A stretch of DNA of 32,000 bases from Alphaproteobacteria bacterium (GCA_031549365.1 JAVBPX010000007.1:42303-74302), one strand, 5' to 3'. Positions 3,684 to 30,669 are shown, numbered from the stretch's first letter. A program made the numbers and translations. Notes: generated from the letters alone by a model not told the origin.

Positions 3684-3727
3684 ATTATTTATTAGCTATA
3701 CTAAGAGTATAAATAAAGGGGCAGAAC

Positions 3728-4762: not shown

Positions 4763-4815
4763 GTATGGTCGAATAACTTATTTAGCTTAAAGATTCATCC
4801 ACCAATCTTATCAAC

Positions 4816-5108: not shown

Positions 5109-5496
5109 ATTATGGTCGCGATATGTACCACATCCATACAAACGGCAAATCCGTGCATTATGGTATTACGTTCGGTGTGAAAATATGAACCTAAAAATCG
5201 AATCCAAACACATGACAAAGATTAGGAAATATTTGGATAACCCAGAACGATGCACAGACCGCGCATACAAAATAAAATACAGCCTGCACCCGGGAACGGA
5301 AATCACAAAAACATTCCGTGGTTTGGAATTCAAAGTGTTGGTCGCCGATAATGGCGACTTTCTTTATGACGGGAAACGATACAAAACATTATCACCAATC
5401 GCCAAAGAAATCTGTGGGATAAAAGTATCCGGCCCAGACTTCTTTGGCCTGCGAACAAAAAGGATAAGGAATACAAACAAAACGACAGATGTTTAG
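5038..5496 (+). CDS. DUF2924 domain protein (recombinase-associated)
   Basis: The C-terminal pattern ..GTEITKTFRGLEFKVLVADNGDFLYDGKRYKTLSPIAKEICGIKVSGPDFFGLR matches the DUF2924 consensus as I recall it. That family usually sits beside large serine recombinases. Confidence 0.6.
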   Translation: MKPKIYLPKTLDELQKLSHEKKSELWSRYVPHPYKRQIRALWYYVRCENMNLKIESKHMTKIRKYLDNPERCTDRAYKIKYSLHPGTEITKTFRGLEFKVLVADNGDFLYDGKRYKTLSPIAKEICGIKVSGPDFFGLRTKRIRNTNKTTDV

Positions 5497-6689: not shown

Positions 6690-6777
6690 AATATTATCCC
6701 TTGTTTTGTTGTTTTATCATATCGAAAGTTTGGTATTTATTCCCTTAAGCGCGAAACTTCCGTATGACAGACAACGC

Positions 6778-6864
6778 CTAAGGGCAGATATAGTAATAGT
6801 TACCTACATACATCGGCGAAGATGCAACAAAACAAGGTTTAAAAAAGGTTTCATGTGATGACAT
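6778..6864 (-). CDS. candidate leader peptide in the tyrS 5' leader (MSSHETFFKPCFVASSPMYVGNYYYICP)
   Basis: 28-codon ORF with an AAGGA SD 6 nt upstream of the ATG. It contains 4 Tyr codons, including TAT-TAC-TAT in a row. It lies between the predicted tyrS promoter and tyrS. It is too short for the ORF track. Confidence 0.3.
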   Translation of the reverse strand: MSSHETFFKPCFVASSPMYVGNYYYICP

Positions 6865-6887
6865 GATAATTCCTTGGTTTCCGCATC

Positions 6888-6916
6888 AATATATTCCAGA
6901 TTTCCCCAAAAGTCAA
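6888..6916 (-). promoter_or_regulatory. sigma70-like promoter for tyrS
   Basis: On the minus strand, TTGACT (6916-6911), a 17-nt spacer, then TATATT (6893-6888). This predicts a ~190-nt leader. Confidence 0.55.
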
Positions 6917-6925
6917 GTATTCCAT

Positions 6926-6956
6926 TTGACTTCCCACACAACGTAAGCATTCATTG
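6926..6956 (+). promoter_or_regulatory. promoter-like element upstream of the serine recombinase
   Basis: TTGACTTCCCA-N6-GTAAGC-N-TT, a paralog of 4816-4846. Its -35 lies back to back with the tyrS -35 (AGTCAA-N9-TTGACT, 6911-6931). Confidence 0.45.
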
Positions 6957-6976
6957 TGGTAACCAAGGGGGTAAAT

Positions 6977-8476: not shown

Positions 8477-8533
8477 CCCGATAAAGTAAACGAAATCATG
8501 TCGGGCACAAAGTGTTACAGCCTTAACGATTTG

Positions 8534-8592
8534 TTCGAAATATCTACTCAATAATAAAACAGTGCACTGCCGAAAATGGGCATTGTATGTAA
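8534..8592 (+). repeat. 59-bp direct repeat, copy 1
   Basis: TTCGAAATATCTACTCAATAATAAAACAGTGCACTGCCGAAAATGGGCATTGTATGTAA. It matches 10101-10159 at 57 of 59 positions. It contains the palindrome CAGTGCACTG. Confidence 0.9.
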
Positions 8593-10016: not shown

Positions 10017-10100
10017 AAAATTAAAAAAAGACGGATAAAATCCGCCTAAACATGTCCCATATTATATCATAAATCGTCAAAAAAATCAATCATAAATTTC

Positions 10101-10159
10101 TTCGAAATATCTACTCAATAATAAAACAGTGCACTGCCGAAATAGGGCATTGTATGTAA
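10101..10159 (+). repeat. 59-bp direct repeat, copy 2
   Basis: Matches 8534-8592 at 57 of 59 positions (AAATAGGG versus AAAATGGG). A partial echo, CGAAATATCTA...CCGGCAG...TTACATAC, follows at 10163-10201. Confidence 0.9.
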
Positions 10160-10305: not shown

Positions 10306-10395
10306 TGGCGGAGAGAGGGGGATTCGAACCCCCGATACCGTTGCCAGTATACACGCTTTCCAAGCGGGCGCGATCAACCACTCTGCCACCTCTCC
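10306..10395 (-). tRNA. tRNA-Ser (anticodon GGA)
   Basis: Folded by hand: acceptor GGAGAGG/TCTCTCC, anticodon loop TTGGAAA, long variable arm (ATAC..GTAT), T-arm GGGGG-TTCGAAT-CCCCC, discriminator G, and an encoded CCA. Confidence 0.9.
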
Positions 10396-14223: not shown

Positions 14224-14341
14224 CCGTTTGAATGGAAAAATTTATCGTTTTTCAAGGCCCGCTGTGTATATAAACATACATGACCGAGCCCAGGTCCGAA
14301 AAAATCATCAGCCACAGGATCCCCAATAATTTTTCCCACGG
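14224..14341 (+). repeat. nested palindromic element, degenerate copy D
   Basis: Apex TGTAT-ATAAAC-ATACA (14265-14280). The flanking arms GGAAAAATTTAT.../...AATAATTTTTCC are imperfectly complementary. Confidence 0.45.
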
Positions 14342-14343
14342 TT

Positions 14344-14470
14344 AAATCGTTTCAAAATGCGATGATTGGGTGAATTGCCGAAGTTTTTTGACGCGACGGA
14401 GCATATATAGACATATGTGACCCGCGCAAAAAACTAGCAATGCGCCCAAGGGCGCATTTTCAAACGATTT
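14344..14470 (+). repeat. nested palindromic element, copy C (127 bp)
   Basis: Terminal inverted repeats AAATCGTTTCAAAATGCG and CGCATTTTCAAACGATTT. Apex CATAT-ATAGAC-ATATG. The right end contains the last 3 codons and the stop of virB11. Confidence 0.8.
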
Positions 14471-15419
14471 CTGTAACGGCGCGCAACGCCCCATCCCTGG
14501 CCAACTGCACCACATGAATCTTTTTCTTCATTTCGGCCATTAATTCGGATCTGTTTAAACTCGGCTTGGTATGCAAAATTCTGTCTGCAAATGCGGCATA
14601 TGCTGCCTCGGCTGATTCTGCATGAATGGTTGTATAAAAATGATCATGACCTGTGCCCATCATTTCCCACAAAATCCCGGCATTATCTGTCGAAATTTCA
14701 CCACCGATGATCACATCTGGGGTCATACGCACAACCAAATCCAATAATTTTGCATAATTAAAATTATTGTTTTGTTCGGTACGTGATAAAATAAAATGAA
14801 CCCGGTTTTCTTGCGGCACTTTAACCTCACGCGCATCTTCAACTGTAATAACGCGCAAATTTCTGTCCAACAAAGTCAACAAATGATTTAAAAACGTGGT
14901 TTTACCGGTGGACGTAGCCCCAGAAATCAAAATCGGCGACCCATCGTTAATGGCCGCCATCAAACGTTCATACGGATCATCTGGTCGAACCTTGCCGCGC
15001 TTTTTAATTGACTTCAAAGCCTCGCCTTTTTTCAAATGATAATTTTCAAAAGATGTATCTTTCGCCATAGTCCCACGAATATTTAACGCAACACCACCCG
15101 TAACATCATTATCGTCATACATAACATTTGGTCCCGCAATCCCAGTAAATCTGTGATTCCCGGGTAACGTAGCATAAACAACCGGATTCCCATGAATCGG
15201 ATCAAACGGACGTTCGTAAATATTTGCAACTGTATGAATTAAATCGACCAAATATTGCTTTGATAACTTGTCGGACATATGACGCACCCACGGAACTTTT
15301 GTTCCATGCAAACGCATCCAAACCTCGCCCGCCCGATTAATTGCGATTTCCTCGACAAATTCAGGCTCAAAAAACTCGGCCAACGGTTTTATCAAAGTAT
15401 CTAAAACAATATCCGCCAT
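14460..15419 (-). CDS. virB11: type IV secretion ATPase VirB11
   Basis: Walker A GATSTGKTT, ..VITVEDAREV.., ..MTPDVIIGGEI.., and ..GTGHDHFYTTIHAES.. typical of VirB11/TrbB. Start set at ATG 15419 (MADIVLD). Confidence 0.85.
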   Translation of the reverse strand: MADIVLDTLIKPLAEFFEPEFVEEIAINRAGEVWMRLHGTKVPWVRHMSDKLSKQYLVDLIHTVANIYERPFDPIHGNPVVYATLPGNHRFTGIAGPNVMYDDNDVTGGVALNIRGTMAKDTSFENYHLKKGEALKSIKKRGKVRPDDPYERLMAAINDGSPILISGATSTGKTTFLNHLLTLLDRNLRVITVEDAREVKVPQENRVHFILSRTEQNNNFNYAKLLDLVVRMTPDVIIGGEISTDNAGILWEMMGTGHDHFYTTIHAESAEAAYAAFADRILHTKPSLNRSELMAEMKKKIHVVQLARDGALRAVTEIV

Positions 15420-15650
15420 AAAAATCCTCTCTCTGGCATATTTTACCACACCCTAATAAAAAACACAAAAGATAAAAATACCCAAAGGCACGCCACAACT
15501 CCATAATCGCGTCAGAATCTAACAGTCATAATTAATTCAGACAACATTCACACTGTATAAAAACATTCAAAATGTGTCGAATGAGCGTGTTTACGAAGTT
15601 TTTTCAGCGGGAGGAGCGTATACAGACAGACATACCCCTAAAAAACGAGA

Positions 15651-15672
15651 AACGCGCCACAGACGGCGCGTT
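15651..15672 (-). terminator. rho-independent terminator after the first acyl-CoA synthetase gene
   Basis: AACGCGCC-acagac-GGCGCGTT. The minus strand continues TCTCGTTTTTT. Confidence 0.65.
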
Positions 15673-15682
15673 TTCAACGTTT

Positions 15683-17272
15683 TTACTCTTTGCGATCTGG
15701 ATACTCACCCCTATCCAACTTCTCACGAATCTCGTGATGCTTCACTTTTTTCGTGCTGGTCTGTGGTAATTCATCCGTTGTCATCGCGTAATGTGTAACC
15801 CATTTGTACGGCGCAATTTTAACATTTGACGAAGCAATATCAATCGCCAATTTTTGCATTGTTACCTCTGGTTTAACTTGGAATACTCCGTATGCAACCA
15901 TTTTGCCACGAATAACTCGTTCCAAAACAGCAGCCGATAAAATATCAGGATTCTGCAAATACAAATCTTCCAATTCATCTGGATAAACGTTTTTACCGCT
16001 GTCCAAAACGATGACTTGTTTTTTACGTCCTTTTACAACCAAACGGCCTTTTTTATCAAACATCCCCAAATCACCGGTTTTATACCAACCGTCTTCTGTG
16101 AATGAATCTGCATTTGCTTCCGGGTTATTAATGTACCCAGGCATAACAACACGCCCACGAACATAAATTTCTCCAATTCCTTGCTTATTCGGTTCATTAA
16201 TCTTGACTTCGTTTCCAATTAATGGTCCGGCATAAACACGTTTTCCATCAGCATTAACGAATTCCAAATTAAAATTACTTGGCCCAGTTGTTTCTGTCAA
16301 TCCATAACAATCGCCGACTGTCATACCCAATGCTTCGTAAAATTTACGAATAGTTGGTTTTAACGTGGCCCCAGCTGAAATTAAAACAGAAACACGTCCA
16401 CCAAACATTTCATGAACTGGCTTGGTAATTCCTTTAACAATGAATCCTAAACCAATGGCACGCAAAAATCCGCGCATAGCCATAACAGTTTTGAACAACC
16501 AATACACGCGTTTTTCTCTGTAACCATCAATAATTTTTTTGTAAAACACTTCCCACATGCGTGGCACAGCCGGAATAACTTGCGGACGATATTTTTTGAA
16601 ATCAGCCAAAAATTCTTTTGGATTCATGCCCGGCTGTAATAACAATGAACCATCCAGCGCGATTGGAGCAATAATATTAATCACAAATCCATAAATATGG
16701 TACAGAGGCAAAAACCCATAAAATATAAACCCAGTCTTAATAACAGATCTATAATATTGTGCCCCATCATAAATACCCAAAATATTGTCATGCGTTAAGC
16801 CAACAATCTTTGGATTCCCAGTCGATCCCGAAGTAAATGATAATGACGCCAAATCATCCAATTCTACATCGGCGGCAACAAAATCTTTTTCATCGCCTGT
16901 ATCTTTGGAATTAATGTCATACATTTCCGGTCCGCCTTCAACGAACAAGTTTTTCTCGGCCAGAGCAATTGAACAATTCGTACGTGCCATCATGTTCAAA
17001 TGTTCTGTTTTGGCCAATGATGTGTCCAACATTAAAACTCTGGCTCCTTGTGAAACCACGGCAAAATATGAAACCAAAAATTGTGGAGAATTTGAACATA
17101 ACAAAGCAACAGTATCGCCTTTTTTAATCCCCAATTTTTTTGACAAAGTAACCGCACGCAATTTAACCAAGCGCAACAAGTCAGCATATGTCAAATTTTC
17201 CCTTACAAAAAACAAACGCTCTTTATTCTTCTCGCATGTTTCTTGTAACATTTGATATATATTTTTAAACAT
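15683..17272 (-). CDS. AMP-dependent acyl-CoA synthetase/ligase (long-chain fatty-acid-CoA ligase-like), paralog 1
   Basis: AMP-binding motif SFTSGSTGNPK, plus ..GYGLTET-like CYGLTETTG and ..TGDLG..GRKKQVIVLDSGKNVYPDELE. AAGGAG SD before the ATG at 17272. Confidence 0.85.
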   Translation of the reverse strand: MFKNIYQMLQETCEKNKERLFFVRENLTYADLLRLVKLRAVTLSKKLGIKKGDTVALLCSNSPQFLVSYFAVVSQGARVLMLDTSLAKTEHLNMMARTNCSIALAEKNLFVEGGPEMYDINSKDTGDEKDFVAADVELDDLASLSFTSGSTGNPKIVGLTHDNILGIYDGAQYYRSVIKTGFIFYGFLPLYHIYGFVINIIAPIALDGSLLLQPGMNPKEFLADFKKYRPQVIPAVPRMWEVFYKKIIDGYREKRVYWLFKTVMAMRGFLRAIGLGFIVKGITKPVHEMFGGRVSVLISAGATLKPTIRKFYEALGMTVGDCYGLTETTGPSNFNLEFVNADGKRVYAGPLIGNEVKINEPNKQGIGEIYVRGRVVMPGYINNPEANADSFTEDGWYKTGDLGMFDKKGRLVVKGRKKQVIVLDSGKNVYPDELEDLYLQNPDILSAAVLERVIRGKMVAYGVFQVKPEVTMQKLAIDIASSNVKIAPYKWVTHYAMTTDELPQTSTKKVKHHEIREKLDRGEYPDRKE

Positions 17273-17356
17273 TACTACTCCTTACTTGCATTCCACCAGC
17301 AAACCATTCGCTGGCGAATTTTTATGTGCGGTCCCCCACACAAACTATCATTTATT

Positions 17357-17382
17357 GTCATTGCCAATGTAACAAAGCAATC
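17357..17382 (+). repeat. short GTCATTGC...GCAATC hairpin unit
   Basis: GTCATTGC-caatgtaacaaa-GCAATC has the same outer arms as the units at 19449, 22221 and 27414. Confidence 0.5.
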
Positions 17383-17448
17383 TCGGCAATACAAACATTT
17401 CCTCTTACATACTCCAAAATCTGTAACTACACAATTCTCACAAACTAT

Positions 17449-17575
17449 AAATCGTGTCAGAATTATGTAGTTACAAAGAATTTATTGTTTTTTATGGCCC
17501 GCGGTTTACATAAACGTAAATAAGGGTCATAAAAACAATAAACTTGTTGGTAAATGCGTGATTATCACACGATTT
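17449..17575 (+). repeat. nested palindromic element, copy E (127 bp)
   Basis: Ends AAATCGTGTCAGAATTATG / GCGTGATTATCACACGATTT. Middle stem TTTATTGTTTTTTATGGCCC / GGGTCATAAAAACAATAAA. Apex TTTAC-ATAAAC-GTAAA. The right end overlaps the stop of ligase paralog 2. Confidence 0.75.
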
Positions 17576-19163
17576 ACTCTTTACGTTGGGAATACTCACC
17601 TTTTTCCAACATCTTCCTAACTTCATGATGCTTTACCTTTTTTGTACTTGTCTGTGGTAATTCATCATTCGTCATCGCATAATGTGTAACCCATTTATAT
17701 GACGCGACACGCATATTTTGCTTGGCAATACCCTTACCCAATTGCTCCAATGTAACATCAGGCTTAACTTGAAATACGCCATATGACACAGTCTTATTCT
17801 TGACCTTATGTTCAAACACAGCAACATTTTCAACCCCAGGTATTTCCATATATAATGCTTCCAATTCGTCTGGATATACATTTTTACCGCTATCTAAAAC
17901 AATAACTTGTTTTTTACGTCCACGGAAAAATAAATCTCCCTTTTCATCCATGACAGCCAAATCCCCGGTATTAAACCAACCATCTTTGTCAAACACTTCT
18001 GAATTGGCCAATTCGTTGTCCAAATATCCTTTGAATACAGAATGCCCACGAACCCACAATTCGCCAACGCCTTCGTTGTTTTTGTTACGAATTTGACATT
18101 CATTGTTTGACAACGATCCGCCAATTGAAAACGGCTTTCTATGCTTTGTTGGCTTACTGATACAGATTGGTCCCACGGTTTCGGTCAAACCATAGCCCTG
18201 AATAAATCCAAATCCCAACCGGGTATAGAATAATTCGATTTCAGGTTTCGTAGCGGCCCCACCAGCAATTAATAAACGAACACGTCCGCCGAACAAATCA
18301 TGAACCGGCCCAGTTAATTTGCGAACAACAAAACCCAACCCCATTGCTTTTAAAAATTTTTGTGATTTTAAAATAAACTTCAATACGCCGTACATATGCT
18401 TTGCTTTGTAGTTTTCAACAATCTTGTTATAAAATACTTCCCACAATCTTGGCACCGCAGGAATAACATGTGGCCTATATTGTTTAAAATCGGCCATAAT
18501 ATCTTTTGGGTTCATCCCTGGCTGTAACAAAATATTTGCACGATAATGTAACGTCGCCAAAATTTCTACAGCAAATCCATACACATGATACATTGGCAAA
18601 AATCCATATAAACAAGCACCATGATGAATGTATTCGGACATATCTTCCAACGAATTGGCCGTTTCAACCAAATTGAAATGTGTCAAAGGCACAACCTTTG
18701 GCATCCCAGTAGATCCAGAAGTAAATGATAACGAAGCAATTTCACAAGACGCAGCTTCATATGGTTTAAATACAAACCCTTTTTCCAACGCTGGATCTTT
18801 TTCTGTAATATCGTGAAATTTAAAATTCTTGCTTTCAAAGAAAAAACTTTTCTCGGCCAAAATCAATTTACAATTAACAATCTTGGTCATATTTTCATAT
18901 TCATATGGTGTTAAATTGGTATCCAACATCAAGACACGACCCCCGGCCGCCAAAATCGCAAAATACGACAATGGGAATTCTGGAATATTATGCGCCAAAA
19001 TACCAACAGTATCACCTGGCTGAACTTTATATTTTTTTTGTAAATTTACGGCTCTGGCATTAACCAATTCCAAAAATTCACCATACGTAGTTCCCTCACG
19101 GGTTAAAAACACATTGCTTGGGACTTCCCTAACAACCTGTTCCAAAAATTGATACATATTCAT
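17574..19163 (-). CDS. AMP-dependent acyl-CoA synthetase/ligase, paralog 2
   Basis: SFTSGSTGMPK. Long blocks are identical to paralog 1 (GRKKQVIVLDSGKNVYPDELE; YKWVTHYAMT.DELPQTSTKKVKHHE). Start set at ATG 19163 with AAGGA upstream. Confidence 0.85.
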   Translation of the reverse strand: MNMYQFLEQVVREVPSNVFLTREGTTYGEFLELVNARAVNLQKKYKVQPGDTVGILAHNIPEFPLSYFAILAAGGRVLMLDTNLTPYEYENMTKIVNCKLILAEKSFFFESKNFKFHDITEKDPALEKGFVFKPYEAASCEIASLSFTSGSTGMPKVVPLTHFNLVETANSLEDMSEYIHHGACLYGFLPMYHVYGFAVEILATLHYRANILLQPGMNPKDIMADFKQYRPHVIPAVPRLWEVFYNKIVENYKAKHMYGVLKFILKSQKFLKAMGLGFVVRKLTGPVHDLFGGRVRLLIAGGAATKPEIELFYTRLGFGFIQGYGLTETVGPICISKPTKHRKPFSIGGSLSNNECQIRNKNNEGVGELWVRGHSVFKGYLDNELANSEVFDKDGWFNTGDLAVMDEKGDLFFRGRKKQVIVLDSGKNVYPDELEALYMEIPGVENVAVFEHKVKNKTVSYGVFQVKPDVTLEQLGKGIAKQNMRVASYKWVTHYAMTNDELPQTSTKKVKHHEVRKMLEKGEYSQRKE

Positions 19164-19187
19164 TTTTTTTCCTTTTTTATGTTCCAC

Positions 19188-19252
19188 CTGCGTTTATAAC
19201 GGACCAGGCGTGTATCATAACTTCATCTGCGTTTATAACGGGCCAGACGTGT
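19188..19252. repeat. two 26-bp direct repeats (39-bp period) in the paralog-2 leader
   Basis: CTGCGTTTATAACGGACCAGGCGTGT (19188-19213) and CTGCGTTTATAACGGGCCAGACGTGT (19227-19252) match at 24 of 26 positions. Each contains the small palindrome CGTT-TAT-AACG. Confidence 0.8.
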
Positions 19253-19286
19253 TTTGGATTTGCCATTTATACAAAATGACCTCGAT

Positions 19287-19315
19287 ATGATAACTATCCG
19301 CGGGAAAAAAGTCAA
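19287..19315 (-). promoter_or_regulatory. sigma70-like promoter for acyl-CoA synthetase paralog 2
   Basis: On the minus strand, TTGACT (19315-19310), a 17-nt spacer, then TATCAT (19292-19287). Confidence 0.55.
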
Positions 19316-19448
19316 CATCCCAAGAATAAATTACCACTCACCAAAACACACGTAAAATTTTTATTCCAAATTATACCTCTCTCAAAATCCCAACCATATT
19401 AAAACCTCACTCCTGGCGCCCCCGCACCAATCCCAACCATTATATTAT

Positions 19449-19623
19449 GTCATTACTAGGGGCCAAGGCTCCGTGGCAATCTTTATCTCGGCGAAACAAC
19501 GTGCCGACGGATCATTGCAATTAAAAACCATCTCGCCCCTCCGGGGAGAGATAATAAAACATATGATCTTCGATCATCATGTTTTATAGAGAGGGGGAAA
19601 TAAAAACAATAACCACAATTAAA
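19449..19623 (+). repeat. mosaic repeat R1 (GTCATT hairpin unit, extra hairpin, and 113-bp conserved module)
   Basis: The module at 19511-19623 differs from 27444-27556 at 4 positions. It contains hairpins ATCTCGCCCC..GGGGAGAGAT and ATAAAACATATGATC..GATCATCATGTTTTAT. Confidence 0.8.
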
Positions 19624-19836
19624 CCATCCCAAACCCCTGGTCATCCGGATCGCGCAGCCGAGAGGATCCAGTAAAACAAACGTTGCGACAGCAACTTTTT
19701 ATTGTCATCCCTCGAAACCACAACTCCGCTCGAATTCCAACGATATAAAAAACTCAACCATTAAAAATTAATAAACATAAACAAGGGTTCTAAAAAACGA
19801 CGAACCTGTTCCGAGGCGATACGTTTTCATTGATTT

Positions 19837-19957
19837 AAAACATTTCAAAATGCGATGATATGGCGGGTTCTTTTTATTTCCGAGTGGGCCGAGCATATAT
19901 AAACATATGTGATGTCCCCGATGAAAATGAAAAAACGCGCCATTGCGCGCATTTTCA
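19837..19957 (+). repeat. nested palindromic element, copy B
   Basis: Left end AAAACATTTCAAAATGCG, right end CGCATTTTCA, which abuts the virD4 stop at 19958-19960. Apex CATAT-ATAAAC-ATATG. Confidence 0.7.
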
Positions 19958-22108
19958 TTAATTTTTATTGGTATATCCCATTGACGCTCTGTGCTTCTCT
20001 ACTAAAAACTCTGGCACAGCAGGGCTCGGCGGAATCGCGGATTTTTCTATTAATTTTGCATCTTCATATGAACGAACATGATCTGCCTTAATCGGACGAT
20101 TTGCATACCCCTGCAATATTACCAACTGATTTTTTGTACTCATCGTAACAATATCCATTGGGGAAAACAAAACAGATTCTTTTTTCTCGTCTTTTCCATC
20201 TTTTGTTTCAATCTTAATTTTTGTACCCATCATTTCGGAAAATATTTTTGCAGTCTCTAAATTATTCTGGCGCAATACAATCTTCGCCGCGGTGGTTGAC
20301 ATTAAAATTTCCATATTTTCTTTTGAATACTTGGCGGCAATCTGTTGCAAATCTTGCCCAATTAATAAATAAGAAACCTTCTGCCCACGACCCAAATCCG
20401 GCCCTTCGATAACAGCTTGTAATTTCGCCATCTTTGGAAATTCGTCCAACACAAATAACACAGGGCAAGGTCCTAACTTTTTACCCGCATGTTCAAATTC
20501 TGGCGGATTCGCAATTAAAAATCTGGACATCAAAGTAACAAAAATCCCAGTAATTGGATTCAAAGCATCTGCATCAACCTGATTAATGGACAAATAAACA
20601 GTAACAGGTTTCATTTTTCCATCACGCGGATCAATCATTCCACGCAAATCTTCGAAATGGAAATCGGAATGCGAAGTCCTCGCACGCACGGCCGAATTTT
20701 TGAAAATCGCCATTGATGCGGCAACGGTGGACAAAATGGATCCACGTTCACGATCTGGCGTATTTGCCAACTGTGTTAATTCTTGAATCGAGCGATGCGC
20801 ATAACCAAATTGACGCCCTTCGTTCACAGCATCTTGGAACAAATCTTTCATCGGATCTGCCAACGCCACCATTTGATCTCCTTGGCGGCGACGATTTTCC
20901 AATTCTTCTGTAATATTAATCTGACTGGTTGTAATCCAATCCAATAACATAGACAACGAAGCTTCCTTACCAACCCACTGCGGCGGAATCCCTTTCCAGG
21001 TCCCAACCGGCACATAATTCATAATATTCATCTGACCGTTGTTTAATAAATTCCAAGCCCCTTCGGCATTTAAATCATTCATTTTCATATAATAACTTGA
21101 TAATAAAACCTTGTCCTCGGCATCAAAAGTATTTGTTTTAAACCGATGATAAAAATAATCATTTGCGCGCGCACGTTCACACTTGGAAACAATGAATTGA
21201 ATCAAACCTGATAAAGCTGCACGCCCTGATAATGTCCAATGTGGATCGGCGGACGACGCAGCCTTGTCTTCAACCAATACAGCCACCATACTGTCCACAT
21301 ACAAATCGCGCTCGGCCGGATCTTGCGGCACATGCGATGGCGACAAAGGATTCCAACTCGGATAATAAATCCCGGCATCTGGATTATCCTGGCCCGCCCA
21401 ATTGATAATAAACACGGGCCCAACTGTTGAACGATACCCGGACGTCAAATGCGCCAATTCCGGCTTTGGATCATTAACAATCATGGACACAGTATCACAC
21501 TCAAAAATTGTTGGCATAACAACACCCTTGGTTTTACCTGTCCCCGGGGGTGCCACGCATAATACAGATAACGTTTCATCCAACTTTAACCACTTTTTTT
21601 TGAATTGCCCCAACACAACCATAAACCCTTTGAATAAACCCATTTTTTCAACATCTTTTTCCGCCGCTTCCAAAGAACTCTTTTCATCAAACTTATCCTT
21701 ACCATATGGATTGAATTCTTTGACCACCTCGGAATCGCGTAACATATAAATAACAATCTGCCCAACCAATGGAACAATCATATAAATATCAGTGCGAAAA
21801 AAAGCACGCTCAAACCAAGCGGGAATTTCCGCAAATACAGACATTCCAAAACTGCTGACAATATGATTAAAATATAATCCCAACCAAGCCGTGGTGGCCG
21901 TCGAAAATCCGTAACGAAAAATATGTTCAACTGGAAATGATAATGCCAAAACAATGTATGCCAATATTGTTAACGCAAGGCTATACCGCATACGCCAAAA
22001 CATTTGGGCCATTGGGGCTTTTTCATGATCCTTGTACGCAGCAGACGAAAAGATCTTAAACCCTTTTCCCTTACCACCCACAGATAATAAATTTGGTAAT
22101 TTTGCCAT
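19958..22108 (-). CDS. virD4: type IV secretion coupling protein VirD4/TraG family
   Basis: N-terminal transmembrane segments, Walker A PPGTGKTKG, Walker B-like VLFVLDEFPKM, 716 aa. AGAGGAA SD. Confidence 0.85.
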   Translation of the reverse strand: MAKLPNLLSVGGKGKGFKIFSSAAYKDHEKAPMAQMFWRMRYSLALTILAYIVLALSFPVEHIFRYGFSTATTAWLGLYFNHIVSSFGMSVFAEIPAWFERAFFRTDIYMIVPLVGQIVIYMLRDSEVVKEFNPYGKDKFDEKSSLEAAEKDVEKMGLFKGFMVVLGQFKKKWLKLDETLSVLCVAPPGTGKTKGVVMPTIFECDTVSMIVNDPKPELAHLTSGYRSTVGPVFIINWAGQDNPDAGIYYPSWNPLSPSHVPQDPAERDLYVDSMVAVLVEDKAASSADPHWTLSGRAALSGLIQFIVSKCERARANDYFYHRFKTNTFDAEDKVLLSSYYMKMNDLNAEGAWNLLNNGQMNIMNYVPVGTWKGIPPQWVGKEASLSMLLDWITTSQINITEELENRRRQGDQMVALADPMKDLFQDAVNEGRQFGYAHRSIQELTQLANTPDRERGSILSTVAASMAIFKNSAVRARTSHSDFHFEDLRGMIDPRDGKMKPVTVYLSINQVDADALNPITGIFVTLMSRFLIANPPEFEHAGKKLGPCPVLFVLDEFPKMAKLQAVIEGPDLGRGQKVSYLLIGQDLQQIAAKYSKENMEILMSTTAAKIVLRQNNLETAKIFSEMMGTKIKIETKDGKDEKKESVLFSPMDIVTMSTKNQLVILQGYANRPIKADHVRSYEDAKLIEKSAIPPSPAVPEFLVEKHRASMGYTNKN

Positions 22109-22220
22109 TCATTCCTCTTCTCGCGCCTAATTATATCACATTTCGTGAAAAAAGACAGTGGAAAATCATCCCCATTTAATGTTATGATATGTACAAACAA
22201 TGTCATCAAAATTAATAATT

Positions 22221-22265
22221 GTCATTGCGAGGAGTCATAACTCCATAGCAATCATTGCAATTAAA
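22221..22265 (+). repeat. mosaic repeat R3 (hairpin unit plus ATCATTGCAATTAAA)
   Basis: GTCATTGC-ga-GGAGT-cata-ACTCC-ata-GCAATCATTGCAATTAAA, located 15 nt upstream of the ftsL start. Confidence 0.7.
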
Positions 22266-22279
22266 CAACGAGGATTTCA

Positions 22280-22573
22280 ATGCGATCTGACTTCAAACTT
22301 TTTTGGATTGGCTGGGGAATGTTGGCAATCTCTGCCTTAACAGTCATGTTATTACAGGTCGGCTCTCAACAACAATTGGACGAATTAACAAAACTAAAAC
22401 GCGACATTGTAAAATCCCAGCAATACAAAACGGAATTGGAAGCAACCTTTGCATCCCTAACCCGCCCCGAAGTATTACGTTCCGTGGTATCATCCGTATA
22501 TCCAAATTTTGAACCAATATCATTTACAAAAATTGTTGATGTTGAACAATTGCCTCTGCGGGGTCAAATTTAA
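22280..22573 (+). CDS. ftsL: cell division protein FtsL
   Basis: Small bitopic protein with one transmembrane segment followed by a coiled-coil-like segment. It lies immediately upstream of ftsI and overlaps it (TAATG). Confidence 0.65.
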   Translation: MRSDFKLFWIGWGMLAISALTVMLLQVGSQQQLDELTKLKRDIVKSQQYKTELEATFASLTRPEVLRSVVSSVYPNFEPISFTKIVDVEQLPLRGQI

Positions 22574-24225
22574 TGGTTAAACGTAAAAAATTCACTGTTG
22601 GGTCCGACGTAATCACCGACATATTGGGCGGCACAAAATCCCACAAATTACAGGTCGTCGAAAACCCATGGGTTTCACGGATCCAGGTTTTATTGCTCGC
22701 CTTTACAATTATATTCGTCGCATTCGCAATTAAATTATTGATACTCGGATCTGACACATCTTTTCATCGCACACGTGGTGGGGTTGGCAATGCAAACTGG
22801 GATTTTATGCGTGCAGCAATCGTTGATCGACATGGTGAATTATTGGCCGTAAATGTACCGGCAGGACATATCATTGTCCGTCCAAATTTGGTCCGCGATC
22901 GTGACGAAGTGGTCAAAACAATCCGCACCGTTTTTCCAAATGAATCTTACGATTCCTTATTGAAACAAATCACAACTGATTCCAAATATGTATACATAAA
23001 AAAATTCACCTCTGAAACAAACGCGAACAAGATCAAGTCCGCCCGAATCCCAGGCCTCGACGTTGAAATGACAGAAAAGCGCTTGTATCCAAAACGCAAT
23101 TTATTCGCGCATGTTGTTGGTTTTGTTGGATCCGACGGTCGCGGACTCGAAGGTGCTGAAAAATGGTTCGACTCTGATTTACGCGGAAAATCGGATCCAG
23201 TCGCAATTTCAATTGATTCCCGGGTCCAGGCAGTAATGCACCAAGAATTGATGAAATCCGTCCAAAAATTTCATGCAAATTATGCAATGGGCATGTTAAT
23301 TAAATCCGAAACAGGCGAAATGATTGCAATGGTATCCGTACCCGATTTTGATCCTGAAAATCCACTGAATTCTCCTGTCGAAAACCGTTTCTTTAAACCA
23401 TTACAAGGCGCCTATGAAATGGGATCCGTCTTTAAAATTTTCAATACCGCATTGGCAATCGAAACTGGCATTGGACTTCGCCGTGAATACGACGTATCTA
23501 AACCATATACAATCCGTGGAAAAACAATCCGCGACGTCCCATCATTCAAACCACCACGCCCTCATATTTCTGTTGCTGAAATTATGTTGCACTCATCAAA
23601 CGTTGGGTCCGCCCAAATCGCATCCGATCTTCCGGACAATGCACAACGCGAAATGATGAAACGCCTCGGATTTATGGACGCCCTCGAAACAGATTTTGTA
23701 ACAACCGCAAAACCAGTATTGCCTCGCCAATGGGGCCCTGTTGAACGCGCAACAATTTCATTCGGACACGGTATTGCGATAACACCAATGCATTTATTAA
23801 CCGCGGTTAACGCAATGGTAAACGGCGGAATTTATGTAACGCCAACATTGAAAAAACAGGAACAAAATGGCGTTGTTCACGGCCGCCGTGTTGTAACACC
23901 AGAAGTATCCTCTCAAATCCGTCAAATCATGTATTTGATTGCTGAAAAAACCACCGCAAAAAAGGCTCGCATCGCAGGCATCGACATCGGCGGAAAAACC
24001 GGTACCGCTGAAAAATTGGTAAACGGCAAATATGATTCCGGCCGTGTTTTCACAGTATTCGTTGGCGCTTTTCCAATCAACGCACCACAATATACTTTGA
24101 TAATAATGTTGGACGAGCCCAAGGGAATCTCGGAAACCTGGGGCTTTAAAACAGCCGCCTGGAACGCCGTCCCAACCGCAGGCGCGGTAATGGATACGGT
24201 CCTTCCTCTCCTCTTCAACGAATAA
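22573..24225 (+). CDS. ftsI: peptidoglycan D,D-transpeptidase FtsI (PBP3)
   Basis: Transpeptidase motifs SVFK (SxxK), SSN (SxN) and KTGT, plus an N-terminal membrane anchor. Confidence 0.9.
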   Translation: MVKRKKFTVGSDVITDILGGTKSHKLQVVENPWVSRIQVLLLAFTIIFVAFAIKLLILGSDTSFHRTRGGVGNANWDFMRAAIVDRHGELLAVNVPAGHIIVRPNLVRDRDEVVKTIRTVFPNESYDSLLKQITTDSKYVYIKKFTSETNANKIKSARIPGLDVEMTEKRLYPKRNLFAHVVGFVGSDGRGLEGAEKWFDSDLRGKSDPVAISIDSRVQAVMHQELMKSVQKFHANYAMGMLIKSETGEMIAMVSVPDFDPENPLNSPVENRFFKPLQGAYEMGSVFKIFNTALAIETGIGLRREYDVSKPYTIRGKTIRDVPSFKPPRPHISVAEIMLHSSNVGSAQIASDLPDNAQREMMKRLGFMDALETDFVTTAKPVLPRQWGPVERATISFGHGIAITPMHLLTAVNAMVNGGIYVTPTLKKQEQNGVVHGRRVVTPEVSSQIRQIMYLIAEKTTAKKARIAGIDIGGKTGTAEKLVNGKYDSGRVFTVFVGAFPINAPQYTLIIMLDEPKGISETWGFKTAAWNAVPTAGAVMDTVLPLLFNE

Positions 24226-24250
24226 AAAACCAATAATAAAACACCACGCT

Positions 24251-24378
24251 CGAAACATTTCAAACTGTGATAATTGGCACGAATTTTTAAATTTTCAGAC
24301 CCGTGGTGTATATAAACATACATAAGGGTTTGAAAATTTAAAAACTTGTTGTCCCAGGGCGCATTTTCAAATGTTTCG
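24251..24378 (+). repeat. nested palindromic element, copy A (128 bp)
   Basis: Ends CGAAACATTTCAAA / TTTCAAATGTTTCG. Middle stem AATTTTTAAATTTTCAGACCC / GGGTTTGAAAATTTAAAAACTT. Apex TGTAT-ATAAAC-ATACA. Confidence 0.8.
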
Positions 24379-24417
24379 CTCTTTACAAACAACCTGTATT
24401 TATGCTAAACTTAATGC

Positions 24418-25110
24418 ATGGAAAATCGTGGAATTTTGTTTTGGTCTACTATGACCCTCACTCTGATACTTGCAATATATGTATCCGTGCGGGTAATGAT
24501 GGTAACGGCGGGTTCTTCTCCCATCACACGCATATCGAACATAACGTTTTCTCCAGATCCAACAATCATTGATAAACGCCGCGTGGTTCAATTAATGAAT
24601 TTACAAAACAATGTATCTGTATATGAATTGGATATGGATATTATGGTTGAACACATTCAAACAATTCCTGAAATTGAATACGTTTCAATTGCCCGCCACC
24701 CTAATGGAAATCTAACAATCCGCATCCGCGAACGCGCCACAGTTGCTTTCTGGAAATCGGATAACAAATATTATCCCTTGGATGAAATGGGTCGATTAAT
24801 TGACCGCCCAATTTCTGAACGTCCTGAAAATTTACCTCTTTTTATTGGTGCCCAACCAACTGATGTTTCCAAGATAATTAAAACAATAAACAACCACGCA
24901 ATTTTAATGGATCGGGTTGCTTCCATCGAATTGGTCGAAGACCGCCGTTGGAACATTAACTTATCATCCGGCACAACAATTATGCTACCCGAAACAGACA
25001 TCGATACTGTATTAAAAAACCTTGCAAAATATCAACAACGCGCATTACTGTTGGATCGCGAAATTGAAAGAATTGATCTACGTGATAAAAACCGCATATT
25101 GGTACGATAA
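24418..25110 (+). CDS. ftsQ: cell division protein FtsQ
   Basis: N-terminal transmembrane segment, POTRA-like region, and ..RRWNINLSSGTTIMLPE.. typical of FtsQ. It directly abuts ftsA. Confidence 0.8.
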   Translation: MENRGILFWSTMTLTLILAIYVSVRVMMVTAGSSPITRISNITFSPDPTIIDKRRVVQLMNLQNNVSVYELDMDIMVEHIQTIPEIEYVSIARHPNGNLTIRIRERATVAFWKSDNKYYPLDEMGRLIDRPISERPENLPLFIGAQPTDVSKIIKTINNHAILMDRVASIELVEDRRWNINLSSGTTIMLPETDIDTVLKNLAKYQQRALLLDREIERIDLRDKNRILVR

Positions 25111-26982
25111 ATGATTAACCTGAACGAGGATTTTTTCTGCGTCTTGGATCTCGGGCATTCTGGCGTACGCGCCATAGGGGCCGAAGTTTTACACGGAAAA
25201 ATCCAACGTATCCGGGTTGAATGCTATGACTACGATTCAACGGACATGGAATCATTTTTACAAAACGCCTCAACTGGAATTGCCCACACTGTGGACCGAT
25301 TGGAAGATGCCTTTTCCTGCCGCTATCAACGCGTATGGGTATCCGGAAATTTTGGACCAATTAAATCCCGCGTATTTCCAGTCGAAATGAATTTTGAATC
25401 GGATAAAAAAGTCACTCCATCCGATGTAATAAAATTAATATCCAGTCGCGAAAATATCTTGAATAACGAAAACGAACACGTACTACATGTAATCCCAACA
25501 TATTACATCGTTGATAATTTCCGCGATTTAAATTCAATCGTTGGAATGCGGGGTTCCCGCATTGGCGCCATATTCCACAGCATATCTGCTGGCCGCGATC
25601 AAATCCGTGACATTGCATCATGTTTACGTCGTGTGCATTTGGAATCTGAACAATTTTTAGATGTGATGATGGTTGTCGGTTCAACTGAATTAACCGACGA
25701 ACAACGCGAAAATGGGACATTAATAATTGATTTGGGCGCGGGCGCAACACACCTCGGCATTTGGTTTAAAAATCGTTTGGTTTATTCCGAAAAAATACCA
25801 CTCGGTGGAAATAATTTAACCGAAACAATTTCTGACGCAATCGGCGTAAACAAATCAATTGCCGAACGCCTGAAACTGGAAATTGGAACAGCAATCCAAA
25901 ACGATATGGACGCATTTAAATCAATCACTTTTTCTGTCCCAGACGAAAGCGGAATCCCAACCGAACGAATTATCACACGATCCGAAATAACATCCGTAAT
26001 ATCTGATTGGTTGGTTGATTTGTTTGATACAATCGACAAACATTTGGTTGCTCGTAAAAAAGATGGTTATATAAATAACATCGTCCTAATGGGTGGCGGC
26101 GCAAAAATTGGCGATATTGAAACAATCGTCCAAAACATATTTGACAAACCAACAACAATTTTATCCGATTCGGACTTGGTATTAATTAATTCATTATATA
26201 AATTCGTTTGGGGTTCAATGAAAAACGAAATCACAGATTATGAAAATAATCGCCAACAATGGGATTACCGCTGGGTCCAAATTAAAAATTGGTTTGAAAA
26301 ACATTTAACCCCTAAAAACAAAATTCGATTGATAAAAAACCCTGTAATGCCCAGCACACTTGCCTTTGACATGACATCTGAAAAAACTTATCAAACATTT
26401 AGATCTGGAAAAATCGATACAATCCATGTTGACGTAATGGACGGAATGTATGTTGAAAATACAGCCTCTGGAATATCGGAAATCGCATCCATCCGAAAAA
26501 TGACTGATGCACACCTACACGTCCATTTAATGGTAAACAATCCAATGGATTGGATTGAATCCACAGCAAACGCCGGCGCAGATTCAATTTTAATTTCCAT
26601 GGACACTGACGGCGCAATCACATCCCTGAACAAAATAAAATCATTAAAATTACGATGTGGTGTTGCCCTGCATCCAAACAGTCCACTATCTCTATTATTG
26701 CCAATACTTCCGCTTGTGGACGAGGTTATGATAATGTCAGTAATCCCAGGATCTGGCGGCCAACCATTTATCCCAACCTCAATTAACCGCATAACGAAAC
26801 TACGCGCCTACCGTGAAAAACATAAATTAAGCTTTAAAATTTCCGTGGATGGGGGCATAAACGCGGATTCCGCCCCGCTTTGTTGGGCATCTGGGGCTGA
26901 TTTATTGGTTGCCGGCTCATTTCTGGCAAAATCAGAATCTTTTCCATCTGCGGTCCGCCAATTATTACCAAAAAAGGCTTGA
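25111..26982 (+). CDS. ftsA: FtsA fused in frame to ribulose-phosphate 3-epimerase
   Basis: Residues 1 to ~400 are actin-like FtsA (LIIDLGAGATHLGIW, IPLGGNNLTETI, VLMGGGAKIGDIE), ending in the amphipathic segment RWVQIKNWFEKHL. Residues ~407-623 are Rpe (HVDVMDG, HVHLMV, MSVIPGSGGQ, VDGGI, VAGS). No stop lies between the two parts. Confidence 0.75.
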   Translation: MINLNEDFFCVLDLGHSGVRAIGAEVLHGKIQRIRVECYDYDSTDMESFLQNASTGIAHTVDRLEDAFSCRYQRVWVSGNFGPIKSRVFPVEMNFESDKKVTPSDVIKLISSRENILNNENEHVLHVIPTYYIVDNFRDLNSIVGMRGSRIGAIFHSISAGRDQIRDIASCLRRVHLESEQFLDVMMVVGSTELTDEQRENGTLIIDLGAGATHLGIWFKNRLVYSEKIPLGGNNLTETISDAIGVNKSIAERLKLEIGTAIQNDMDAFKSITFSVPDESGIPTERIITRSEITSVISDWLVDLFDTIDKHLVARKKDGYINNIVLMGGGAKIGDIETIVQNIFDKPTTILSDSDLVLINSLYKFVWGSMKNEITDYENNRQQWDYRWVQIKNWFEKHLTPKNKIRLIKNPVMPSTLAFDMTSEKTYQTFRSGKIDTIHVDVMDGMYVENTASGISEIASIRKMTDAHLHVHLMVNNPMDWIESTANAGADSILISMDTDGAITSLNKIKSLKLRCGVALHPNSPLSLLLPILPLVDEVMIMSVIPGSGGQPFIPTSINRITKLRAYREKHKLSFKISVDGGINADSAPLCWASGADLLVAGSFLAKSESFPSAVRQLLPKKA

Positions 26983-27367: not shown

Positions 27368-27413
27368 AATTGCCATTGCAGCACAGCACGACGATAATTA
27401 CAATTAATAATAT

Positions 27414-27556
27414 GTCATTGCAAGAAGCTATGGCTTCGTGGCAATCATTGCAATTAAAAACCATCTCGCCCCAACGGGGAGAGATAATAAAACATATGAT
27501 CTTTGATCATCATGTTTTATAGAGAGGGGAAAATAAAAACAATAACCACAATTAAA
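27414..27556 (+). repeat. mosaic repeat R2 (hairpin unit plus 113-bp conserved module)
   Basis: GTCATTGC-aa-GAAGC-tatg-GCTTC-gtg-GCAATC, followed by the module at 27444-27556, which nearly matches 19511-19623. Confidence 0.8.
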
Positions 27557-29150: not shown

Positions 29151-29932
29151 AACACGTACGAATTTATTCACCTGAAAAATTAACAGAAAATCAAATCATA
29201 ACATTTGACGCACCAACATCACATTATTTAACAAATGTAATGCGCCTACAAAACGGTTCTGAAATCGCAATTTTCAATGGCGGCATTGAACACGCCGCAA
29301 CAATTGAAATTCAAAAAAAACAAACCGTCGCACACATTGGTAAAATCACAAATACAAATGATCCAATAACAAACGCAACACTTGCATTTGCACCAATTAA
29401 ACAATCGAACATGGAATGGATGCTAGAAAAATCAACTGAACTGGGCGTTAAATACCTACAACCAGTTATCACAGAATTCACAGACCAGCCAAAAATGCGC
29501 CTGGATCGCTTTGAAAAAATTCTGGCGGACGCAGCAGAACAATCCGAACGCTTGTCTGTTCCGGAAATATTGCCAACTAAAACTCTGACTCAATTTTTAT
29601 CTGAAAATAAATTACCACTATATTATGGCGACGAACGCTCTGCCCACAATCAACATGATAATTGTCCTTGTCTGGGGTCCAGCCCCCATGACAATCATTT
29701 CGATATTAACTCTCACACATCAACAGGGCCAAACACCAACGAATTATTCCAAAATTCAAAATCTTTAACGAACCAACCCTTCGTCGTATTAATCGGCCCA
29801 GCTGGTGGTTTTTCCGAATCCGAATTTAAAATGCTGGAACAATCAAACGCAATCCCTATGAATTTGGGCAAAACGATACTGCGTGCAGAAACGGCCGCCA
29901 TCGCCGCCCTATCTATCTTATCAATAAAATAA
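29147..29932 (+). CDS. rsmE: 16S rRNA (uracil1498-N3)-methyltransferase RsmE
   Basis: The N-terminal PUA-like region (..HYLTNVMRLQNGSEIAIFNG..) and the C-terminal LIGPAGGFSESE...LGKTILRAETAAIAA are characteristic. Its start overlaps the upstream stop (ATGA). Confidence 0.8.
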   Translation: MKHVRIYSPEKLTENQIITFDAPTSHYLTNVMRLQNGSEIAIFNGGIEHAATIEIQKKQTVAHIGKITNTNDPITNATLAFAPIKQSNMEWMLEKSTELGVKYLQPVITEFTDQPKMRLDRFEKILADAAEQSERLSVPEILPTKTLTQFLSENKLPLYYGDERSAHNQHDNCPCLGSSPHDNHFDINSHTSTGPNTNELFQNSKSLTNQPFVVLIGPAGGFSESEFKMLEQSNAIPMNLGKTILRAETAAIAALSILSIK

Positions 29933-29961
29933 ATAATCAAATTTCAATTATACAACCTATT

Positions 29962-29980
29962 GAAACATTTCAAAATGTTT
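29962..29980. repeat. solo terminal-repeat-like hairpin related to the nested palindromic elements
   Basis: GAAACATTTCAAAATGTTT resembles the two element termini joined without the internal part. Its last base is the first base of the birA stop codon complement. Confidence 0.4.
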
Positions 29981-30669
29981 TATACTGTGATTTCATCTCC
30001 ATAAACCAACATATAATCCGCCCCTCGGCGCAAAACCAAAACACCATCATCATTAATTCCGCACAAAATTACTTCATGTCCTTGGTACTTAACAGTATGA
30101 CCAATAAAATCAGCACGCAACATCCATTCACGACGAATAGGATCAAAACCTTTACTCTTTAATTTGTTCATCCAAAAATCAACCCGATCCAATAATTTTG
30201 TTAAAACATCTTCTAATTTAACATTTTTTGAATACTTTGAAATATAGGTTGTATCGTATTTTACAATATCACCTTTTGCTGGCGACGAAACAACATTAAC
30301 ACCAATTCCAATAATTACAAAATCGCGAACATGCTCAATTAATATCCCTGATATTTTTTTACCTTTAACCAAAACATCATTGGGCCATTTAATCATAGAA
30401 TCAATTCCGAAACTGTCCACAACCTCGGCAACCGCGACAGCAATAGCATATGCAACTAACGAAGATCTTTCTTCCATCTTATACAACAGCGAAATATATA
30501 AATTGCCCTTTGGACTGATCCACTGACGCTTATAACGACCGCGTCCTCTTGTTTGTTCTTCGGCCATAATTGCCATACGATCTATAGCCTTGTTGTCATC
30601 AACAAATTTGCGAGCCTTTGATTGCGTACTATCCAAACTCGGATAAATTTTTAATTTAAATCCTGCCAA
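29980..30669 (-). CDS. birA: biotin--[acetyl-CoA-carboxylase] ligase (group I, no HTH)
   Basis: GRGRYKRQWISPKGNLYISL matches the BPL signature GRGRxGRxWxSP. Start set at TTG 30669, which is preceded by GGAGG at 7 nt. The track ORF starts at TTG 30690. Confidence 0.8.
   Translation of the reverse strand: MAGFKLKIYPSLDSTQSKARKFVDDNKAIDRMAIMAEEQTRGRGRYKRQWISPKGNLYISLLYKMEERSSLVAYAIAVAVAEVVDSFGIDSMIKWPNDVLVKGKKISGILIEHVRDFVIIGIGVNVVSSPAKGDIVKYDTTYISKYSKNVKLEDVLTKLLDRVDFWMNKLKSKGFDPIRREWMLRADFIGHTVKYQGHEVILCGINDDGVLVLRRGADYMLVYGDEITV

Follow-up and report, generated by a model that had tools for sequence, protein, structure and literature searches.

What kind of sequence places the same long palindrome beside the ends of several unrelated genes in one bacterial genome? 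The question is raised by a 32,000-nt stretch of DNA from Alphaproteobacteria bacterium (GCA_031549365.1 JAVBPX010000007.1:42303-74302), analyzed at its full length and called the window here. Seven copies of one repeat family are confined to 14.2-24.4 kb of it, all in the + orientation (7/7). Five of these are intact and about 127 nt long (A to E), one is degenerate (F), and one is truncated at its 5' end (G). The family is probably a small non-autonomous mobile element, that is, a MITE (miniature inverted-repeat transposable element) of the ERIC/Correia type; the family itself is new, its kind ordinary. The copies were collected with a repeat finder, an nhmmer profile, and a covariance model (CM) run on the window, and they are as follows.

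14224..14341, + strand: F, degenerate subfamily-2 copy, in tandem with A across a 2-nt spacer
14344..14470, + strand: A, intact, subfamily 1; fold -57.2 kcal/mol, z -9.3; CM 149.8 bits
15558..15684, + strand: B, intact, subfamily 1; nhmmer E 7e-28; CM 107 bits; fold z -3.8
17449..17575, + strand: C, intact, subfamily 2; fold z -8.5; CM E 2.4e-10, outside the seed
19768..19836, + strand: G, 5'-truncated subfamily-2 copy consisting of the loop and right half, directly abutting D
19837..19966, + strand: D, intact, subfamily 1; fold z -5.0; CM 105 bits
24252..24377, + strand: E, intact mosaic with subfamily-1-like ends and a subfamily-2 centre; fold z -8.1; CM E 1.5e-13, outside the seed

The exact length is 127 nt in A, B, and C and 126 nt in E. 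The CM was seeded on A, B, and D only, and it recovered both E and C. Copy F matches positions 21-90 of the family profile (nhmmer E 1.4e-6) and has the same apex as E (GTGTATATAAACATACAT), with a right arm that has decayed. Copy G, which the repeat finder also picked up, matches positions 62-124 (nhmmer E 8.8e-4), and its right end (TTTTCATTGATTT) is resembled by that of D (TTTTCATTAATTT). A pattern for the left end of the element was matched 7 times and one for the right end 5 times, compared to the 0.99 and 0.16 matches expected from shuffled sequence. No further copies were found by nhmmer or the CM in the other 22 kb of the window. The initial annotation of this DNA had listed five copies (F, A, C, D, and E), all of which were found where it had placed them, and its description of the first as degenerate agrees with a fold no better than chance (z -0.7); it overlooked the intact B and the truncated G. 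Elsewhere, a short palindrome at 29960..29983 (+ strand), GAAACATTTCAAAATGTTTT, resembles the element termini only and fits the left-end pattern with 2 mismatches. With a CM score of 11.6 bits (E 1.9), it is not significant alone and could be a solo-end remnant, a footprint, or chance.

From the ends inward, each element begins with terminal inverted repeats of about 20 bp, whose conserved core is TTTCAAAATGCG at the left end and CGCATTTTCAAA at the right (family end motif TAAAYNTTTCAAAATGCG). Next comes a middle that is variable yet self-complementary, and last an apical hairpin. When folded as RNA, A, C, and E each form one long hairpin (-57.2, -48.2, and -48.2 kcal/mol), and none of 200 shuffles was as good. 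A structure-guided alignment places a C/C mismatch in the terminal stem of all five intact copies, which reflects one fixed difference between the left and right ends. The initial annotation had tied this mismatch to TTTCAAA on both arms, and here the mismatch stands while the exact heptamer is present on both arms in A and E only; in D, the left arm has TTTCAAA and the right arm TTTTCA, and the arms read TTCAA/TTCAA in B and TCAG/ATCAC in C. The apical stems and loops are as the annotation described them: CATAT/ATATG in A and D, TGTAT/ATACA in E and F, and TTTAC/GTAAA in C, closing the loop ATAAAC in C, D, E, and F and ATAGAC in A. In B, the loop is ACAGAC. No reading frame is consistently open across the copies, and an encoded peptide like that of the RPE repeats is ruled out.

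The variable stems change in a compensatory way. In a four-copy alignment (B, D, E, and C), 86% of the cells are standard pairs compared to 73% in shuffles, and 23 of the 50 pairs stay paired through two-sided changes; none of 500 shuffles reached any of the five measures of pairing that were used. Pairing drops to 35-55% when the partners are slid by 1-3 columns. Helix 1, made of the ~20-bp ends, is 96.8% paired. RNAalifold gave essentially the same structure on the model-fitted alignment, and a count of our own over all five intact copies found 214 of 240 cells paired and 27 covarying pairs. The compensatory stem change claimed for the family is borne out. There is also an asymmetry between the strands, since on the + strand G:T pairs outnumber A:C mismatches (17 vs 7), and in every intact copy (5/5) the RNA of the + strand has the more stable fold (-48.2 vs -31.5 kcal/mol in C). 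Both observations fit a single-strand structure that matters. Of course, the covariation, although real, is no proof of RNA function, because hairpin-templated repair or different master copies would give the same signal; selection on RNA and selection or templated repair on a DNA hairpin look alike in this respect.

The copies fall into two subfamilies that differ at the apex and in the right arm. In subfamily 1 (A, B, and D), the apex is framed by GGAGC and GTGA, and a GC-rich local hairpin with a T run after it is found in the right arm. In subfamily 2 (C, E, F, and G), the apex has the form CCCGYGG-stem-ATAAAC-stem-ATAAGGG, and there is no terminator hairpin. A terminator scan of the 11.5-kb region found its best matches in A, B, and D, right after stop codons, and no module in C or E. 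The three modules are listed here.

14439..14458, - strand: terminator module of A, GC hairpin AATGCGCCCTTGGGCGCATT then GCTAGTTTTT
15649..15674, both strands: terminator module of B, the two best matches of the region, with 10 pairs (6 GC) and T runs on each strand
19931..19956, both strands: terminator module of D, on the - strand GCGCGCAATGGCGCGT then TTTTTCATTT

Rho-independent terminators are therefore found in A, B, and D only, and there as a sub-module of the right arm. The initial annotation had judged the elements to be something other than plain terminators, which is only half right, since A, B, and D hold the best terminator matches of the region.

Ends and centres of different types are found in several combinations. 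The outer stem AAATCG is joined to the subfamily-1 apex in A and to the subfamily-2 apex in C, and the outer stem AAACAT is joined to the subfamily-1 apex in D and to the subfamily-2 apex in E. In E, the arms and interior are like those of subfamily 1 (z 6.4 against structure-preserving shuffles), and the apex and the AAACTTGTTG stretch match C. This shuffling of end and centre types points to recombination between copies. The recurrence of outer stems (AAATCG in A and C, AAACAT in D and E) also means that they belong to the element, and for this reason TTTCAAA as a 7-9-bp duplication inside a palindromic target was ruled out.

The genes that adjoin the intact copies are the following.

14460-15449, - strand: VirB11-like ATPase gene; TGA stop and last three codons inside the right arm of A
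15683-17272, - strand: AMP-binding gene; TAA stop overlapped by the right end of B
17574-19187, - strand: paralogous AMP-binding gene; TAA stop overlapped by the right end of C
19958-22108, - strand: VirD4 gene; TAA stop and last codons in the diverged right outer arm of D
22573-24225, + strand: ftsI; E starts 26 nt downstream
24418-25110, + strand: ftsQ; E ends 40 nt upstream

In four of the five intact copies (A-D), the same right end touches or surrounds the stop codon of a gene on the - strand. The orientation of the loop, said earlier to be constant whatever the direction of the neighboring genes, is indeed + in 7/7 copies, but its independence of gene direction rests on E (and F) alone. 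The genes flanking A, B/C, D, and E are mutually unrelated, and the copies are a repeat family rather than recent duplicates of one locus. The two AMP-binding paralogues are in tandem and 74% identical at the nucleotide level. B and C occupy the identical position on the TAA of these paralogues, yet they belong to different subfamilies; therefore, they did not arise by simple divergence in place after gene duplication, which favors replacement or independent insertion. VirD4 and the VirB11-like ATPase are separated by the two paralogues, and all four genes end in elements (14460-22108), which is an unusual layout for genes of a type IV secretion system.

The flanking dinucleotide is TA on both sides in B and C and on the left only in D, with TA/TC in A and CG/CG in E. 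Since TA extends the palindrome, a target duplication is inseparable from the inverted repeat. The 8 nt outside the right ends of E (24378-24385) and C (17576-17584) are identical, CTCTTTAC. At C this sequence, and at B the sequence CTCTTTGC, encodes the last two codons of the AMP-binding genes; beside E it is intergenic. Either the subfamily-2 elements extend to the right of the hairpin, or a copy carried flanking DNA with it. Domain scans of the open reading frames (ORFs) of the window found no transposase, Y1 enzyme, RAYT, or tyrosine/integron integrase. The sole recombinase, of the large serine type, lies in a prophage-like stretch (0.4-8.5 kb), about 6 kb from the elements.

The host is an uncultured Rickettsiales-like alphaproteobacterium of a deep lineage, with no close relative in the collections. 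Its FtsI has a 100% match in a single NCBI/Logan protein; the next-best matches are 53-56% identical, the named ones coming from metagenome-assembled genomes (MAGs) of Alphaproteobacteria or Rickettsiales, and the loci of the nearest FtsI relatives (L070-L073) hold no copies of the element. From the same organism there is a 4.6-kb short-read Logan contig (L001), which starts in another repeat and ends inside E, at element position 84. Near-identical copies at other places in the genome would lead one to expect such a break, which makes it indirect evidence for them. Two-ended pattern scans of the genome and metagenome collections did not find A, D, or E, the same kind of scan gave 0 matches in the viral collection, and BLAST of element A against 72,556 plasmids gave no match. 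The genome scan returned 37 loci, nearly all of them chance matches in coding DNA. The exceptions are two hairpins with a GGAGC...GTGAC apex, in Peredibacter (L010) and in a Bacteriovoracaceae MAG (L005), while a locus in Methylotenera (L026) is a hairpin without this apex. The metagenome scan returned 22 loci, most of which are, by eye, near-identical copies of one gut-bacterial sequence; its one real match (L049) is the orthologue of L010.

How could such a family have come about? If it is a MITE, a transposase encoded elsewhere in the genome would move the elements to TA sites, with TA as the putative target duplication, and insertions would survive where the harm is small, at or in the stop codons of genes. 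Read on the - strand, the end of the element would supply a TAA or TGA within a few codons. The copies would then recombine with each other, bringing about the mosaics of end type and centre type. Each element would be transcribed together with the adjoining gene, so that in subfamily 1 (A, B, and D) the stop codon would be followed directly by a Rho-independent terminator. Transcripts of the + strand (e.g., ftsI-E-ftsQ) would hold the whole element as a hairpin of about 60 bp, which could affect mRNA stability.

Several lines of evidence argue for a MITE. Terminal inverted repeats bracket a short non-coding core, as is generic for MITEs, and the copies, five intact and two decayed, are set in intergenic contexts that are unrelated. 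The TA flanks match the description of ERIC-type MITEs, which have terminal inverted repeats, target duplications, and a flanking 5'TA3' (PMC3184786). The recovery of E and C by a model seeded on A, B, and D, the shuffled end and apex types, and the different subfamilies of B and C at one paralogue position all speak for it, as do the location of the best terminator matches in A, B, and D and the assembly break inside E. An Rfam scan of the whole window (E <= 1) found nothing on the elements save a 26-bit, chance-level VqmR match on B, and this also counts for a MITE. Both decayed copies are in tandem with an intact one (F beside A, G beside D), which is further support because the same clustering is reported for the pneumococcal BOX, RUP, and SPRITE elements (PMC10969869).

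Some observations weigh against this reading. The window holds no transposase and no autonomous element with matching ends, and a comparison of empty and filled sites lacks a close relative, given that the best FtsI matches are 53-56% identical and their loci are without copies. The TA flanks are ambiguous in that TA + AA...TT + TA is itself palindromic, and the flanks are CG/CG in E and TA/TC in A. The extreme tips differ from copy to copy but stay complementary within each, which is unusual for ends bound by a transposase and points to selection or repair acting on the hairpin. Also, conservation is higher in the loop than in the apical stem, and one strand has more G:T than A:C; both would fit a functional folded strand. 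All of the copies lie within 10 kb in one orientation, with 0 in the other 22 kb, which is odd for an element that disperses freely.

One could consider the elements a family of structured cis-acting RNAs, such as 3'-untranslated-region stabilizers, processing sites, or small RNAs (sRNAs) born of repeats, in which selection acts on the + strand fold, the ATAAAC loop binds a protein, and mobility lies in the past. The compensatory change in 23-27 of 50 pairs (0/500 shuffles as high), the loop that is conserved while its apical stem changes, the greater stability of the + strand RNA in 5/5 copies, and the ratio of G:U to A:C (17 to 7, a small sample) would all be accounted for, and MITE-derived sRNAs and an influence of ERIC on mRNA decay have been documented (PMC10969869). 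However, four of the five intact copies come after genes on the - strand, and the transcript that is certain carries the weaker - version; in A, B, and D, it would even stop at the internal terminator before the long hairpin was complete. With no Rfam match and five to seven related copies only, and with an inverted repeat able to covary without selection on RNA, this explanation is a minor possibility. Distinctly unlikely is transposition as single-stranded DNA, whether of REPIN-like doublets served by a RAYT or of an IS200/IS605-type element. Here, a Y1 HUH enzyme that acts on the folded strand would explain the single orientation of 7/7 copies in a window whose GC skew is uniformly negative, and a hairpin with conserved asymmetric internal loops, a conserved apical loop, and tolerance of G:T on one strand would suit such an enzyme. 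The direction of the genes explains the orientation equally well, though, with the same end on a stop codon in 4/5 intact copies, and the elements have no short GC-rich REP units and no conserved tetranucleotide beside a short hairpin. IS200/IS605 ends have subterminal hairpins, no terminal inverted repeats, and no duplication. The ends in the window are, in contrast, mutual inverted repeats that pair over their full length as one continuous palindrome with TA ends, which excludes IS200/IS605-type ends. A recognition hairpin for a REP/RAYT or IS200/IS605-type enzyme, as the initial annotation had proposed, thus finds little in these ends to recommend it, and the search of the window ORFs for a RAYT or TnpA (Y1) gene or transposase domain found none.

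The canonical terminators immediately after the stop codons in A, B, and D, and the placing of B and C after tandem paralogues, raise the question of whether these are ordinary bidirectional terminators that were duplicated with their genes and diverged in place, with no mobility at all. This is very unlikely, as C and E are without a terminator module, E sits inside the ftsI-ftsQ-ftsA cluster, and A, B/C, D, and E have unrelated genes beside them. B and C, which alone could have been duplicated together, differ in subfamily, and conserved ends of about 20 bp and a length of about 127 nt exceed what a terminator needs. A unit of gene plus element repeated four times in one orientation, with hairpins that are like attC sites in size and conserve structure over sequence, also calls to mind the cassette recombination sites of integrons, which are folded-strand sites of a site-specific recombinase. 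We consider this extremely improbable. No copy has an RYYYAAC/GTTRRRY core pair on either strand, there is no integron integrase among the window ORFs (the sole recombinase being the large serine recombinase 6 kb away), and the "cassettes" would be large genes (VirD4, two 530-aa ligases, and a VirB11-like ATPase), with one element between ftsI and ftsQ. On the grounds of core sites and context, attC sites were ruled out.

The elements matter for how this genome is read. They account for seven intergenic hairpins in the annotation, the last codons and stops of two type IV secretion genes come from two of them (A and D), and assemblies of the organism are probably broken by them. A MITE-type family is added from a deep, uncultured Rickettsiales-like lineage, and its subfamilies with and without a terminator are a natural test of whether effects on transcripts keep the elements in place.

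The window has other features apart from this family. A second, unrelated repeat family is found at 19442-19623, 27407-27556, 22214-22265, and 29663-29708, its unit being a small hairpin of the form TGTCATTGC-(stem-loop)-GCAATCATTGCAATTAAA. In two places (19511-19623 and 27444-27556), the unit is followed by a 113-nt block, 96% identical, with two more short hairpins. The start of the Logan contig L001 lies some 80 nt downstream of the copy at 19442-19623, at a short stretch that contains TGTCAT (19700). Right after the ribosomal protein L28 gene, 27337-27371 is a perfect, bidirectional, terminator-like palindrome, AAAAAAACTCCCAAACGGGAGTTTTTTT, which is the cause of weak Phe_leader matches to Rfam on both strands. 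The prophage-like stretch at 385-8476 lies beside a class I Trp/Tyr-family tRNA synthetase gene (PF00579) and includes a terminase large subunit, DUF5681, a ParB-DNA methylase fusion, Fic/HTH, DUF2924, and the large serine recombinase. Between that recombinase (6956-8476) and a tRNA-Ser(GGA) (10306-10395) there is a 1.5-kb segment with small ORFs (one DUF488), bounded by 64-nt direct repeats at 8529-8592 and 10096-10159 that are 95% identical; these may be attachment-site-like boundaries of an integrated element. Finally, 25111-26982 is one 623-aa ORF with an FtsA-type actin fold (residues ~84-360) and a complete ribulose-phosphate 3-epimerase domain (412-604), and the fusion is either real or an artifact of a mechanical ORF call that joined two genes.

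Several known families invite comparison. The Correia/NEMIS elements of Neisseria and the SPRITE elements of S. pneumoniae are also about 100-150 bp long with inverted-repeat ends, and they are co-transcribed with their neighbors and form long RNA hairpins. The target of Correia elements is TA, and both processing by RNase III and promoter activity have been shown for them. SPRITE elements hold a module like a Rho-independent terminator, cluster, and insert beside one another (PMC10969869). A relation in sequence is not expected in either case, and the likeness is by description only. The Rickettsia palindromic elements (RPEs) typically insert in frame within genes and encode a peptide. By that description the window elements are set apart, as they have no consistently open frame and touch only the 3' ends of genes. 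In Rickettsiales-type genomes, RPEs are repeats that are palindromic, about 100-150 bp long, and able to overlap coding sequence (PMC10969869), and there is a likeness in that A and D contribute the last codons and stop of two genes. The REPINs are described as long hairpins of about 100 bp that lie between genes and do not code, their arms being conserved and their centre less so (PMC3116915). The window elements differ from them in being without short REP units, in having TA ends and a conserved apex, and in the window having no RAYT.

The most detailed comparison is with ERIC (enterobacterial repetitive intergenic consensus, or IRU), which is also 127 bp long and is likewise made of an outer stem, an inner terminal repeat, a variable middle, and an apical hairpin. 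The inner terminal repeat reads TTCGAGTTGCA...TGCAACTTGAA in ERIC and TTCAAAATGCG...CGCATTTTCAA in the window elements, and the GGAGC/GTGAC frame of the ERIC apex is that of subfamily 1 and is lacking in subfamily 2. To our knowledge, ERIC has no known transposase, and its means of movement was never found. An imperfect palindrome of about 127 bp with TA-flanked ends describes both families, ERIC having TA at its ends (PMC3184786), and ERIC is often found at gene 3' ends and co-transcribed (PMC10969869). There are differences as well. The position of the C/C mismatch in the window elements is taken by a G:T pair in ERIC, whose loop is not conserved. According to reviews of MITEs, the range of ERIC is the Enterobacteriaceae and Vibrionaceae, whereas the host here is alphaproteobacterial, with named FtsI homologues in MAGs of Alphaproteobacteria or Rickettsiales (~50-54% identity).

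Four tests bear on homology between the two. The ERIC core GTGAATCCCCAGGAGCTTACATAAGTAAGTGACTGGGGTGAGCG was verified in E. coli, and nine real copies from five genera were aligned to build a CM of ERIC. The top three matches of the ERIC CM in the window are C, A, and E (+ strand; E 0.13-0.16), and the window CM matches the ERIC copies at E 0.015-1.2. A hidden Markov model (HMM) of ERIC had no match in the window (nhmmer), and a base-pair shuffle that keeps the fold gave z -0.7 to 1.2 for ERIC against the five copies, which is not significant. An unrelated palindrome (L005:4006-4084) scores as well with both CMs and on both strands; these E-values overstate relatedness because the models reward any long hairpin. 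What is shared with ERIC in sequence is only the GGAGC...GTGAC apex frame and the TTC.A..TGC end pattern, and homology was rejected as unproven.

The Peredibacter element stands apart from this result. It is a hairpin of 130-143 nt located immediately 3' of tRNA-Arg(TCT) in Peredibacter sp. HCB2-198 (NZ_CP174607.1, L010 1235-1377) and in a metagenome contig (JGI Ga0247813_10103219, L049 783-912). The two are orthologous, 83% identical, and differ by at least one compensatory change, C-G to T-A. Their GGAGC...GTGAC apex was not imposed by the search pattern; their ends were. In contrast to the window copies, this element resembles ERIC significantly (nhmmer E 6.7e-4; ERIC CM E 0.005; shuffle z 3.6 and 4.7). 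Homology to the window copies was also considered for the interiors of L010, L049, and L005 and rejected, their similarity not being significant and the shared ends being imposed by the pattern.

It is conceivable, though on balance unlikely, that the window elements, the Peredibacter element, and ERIC make up one old superfamily that crosses phyla and has been kept by a conserved partner of the folded strand. Its features could be the TTC.A..TGC / GCA..T.GAA inner repeat, the length of about 127 nt, and an apex framed by tandem G:A pairs, GGAGC...GTGAC. If such a superfamily were real, the partner could be the enzyme that moves ERIC or a factor that binds or processes RNA, and the genome of the window, with its intact, decayed, recombinant, and stop-codon copies, would be useful for finding it. 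The link to ERIC is a lead only. The family is ERIC-like in architecture and is not ERIC, which is nevertheless its closest known analogue.

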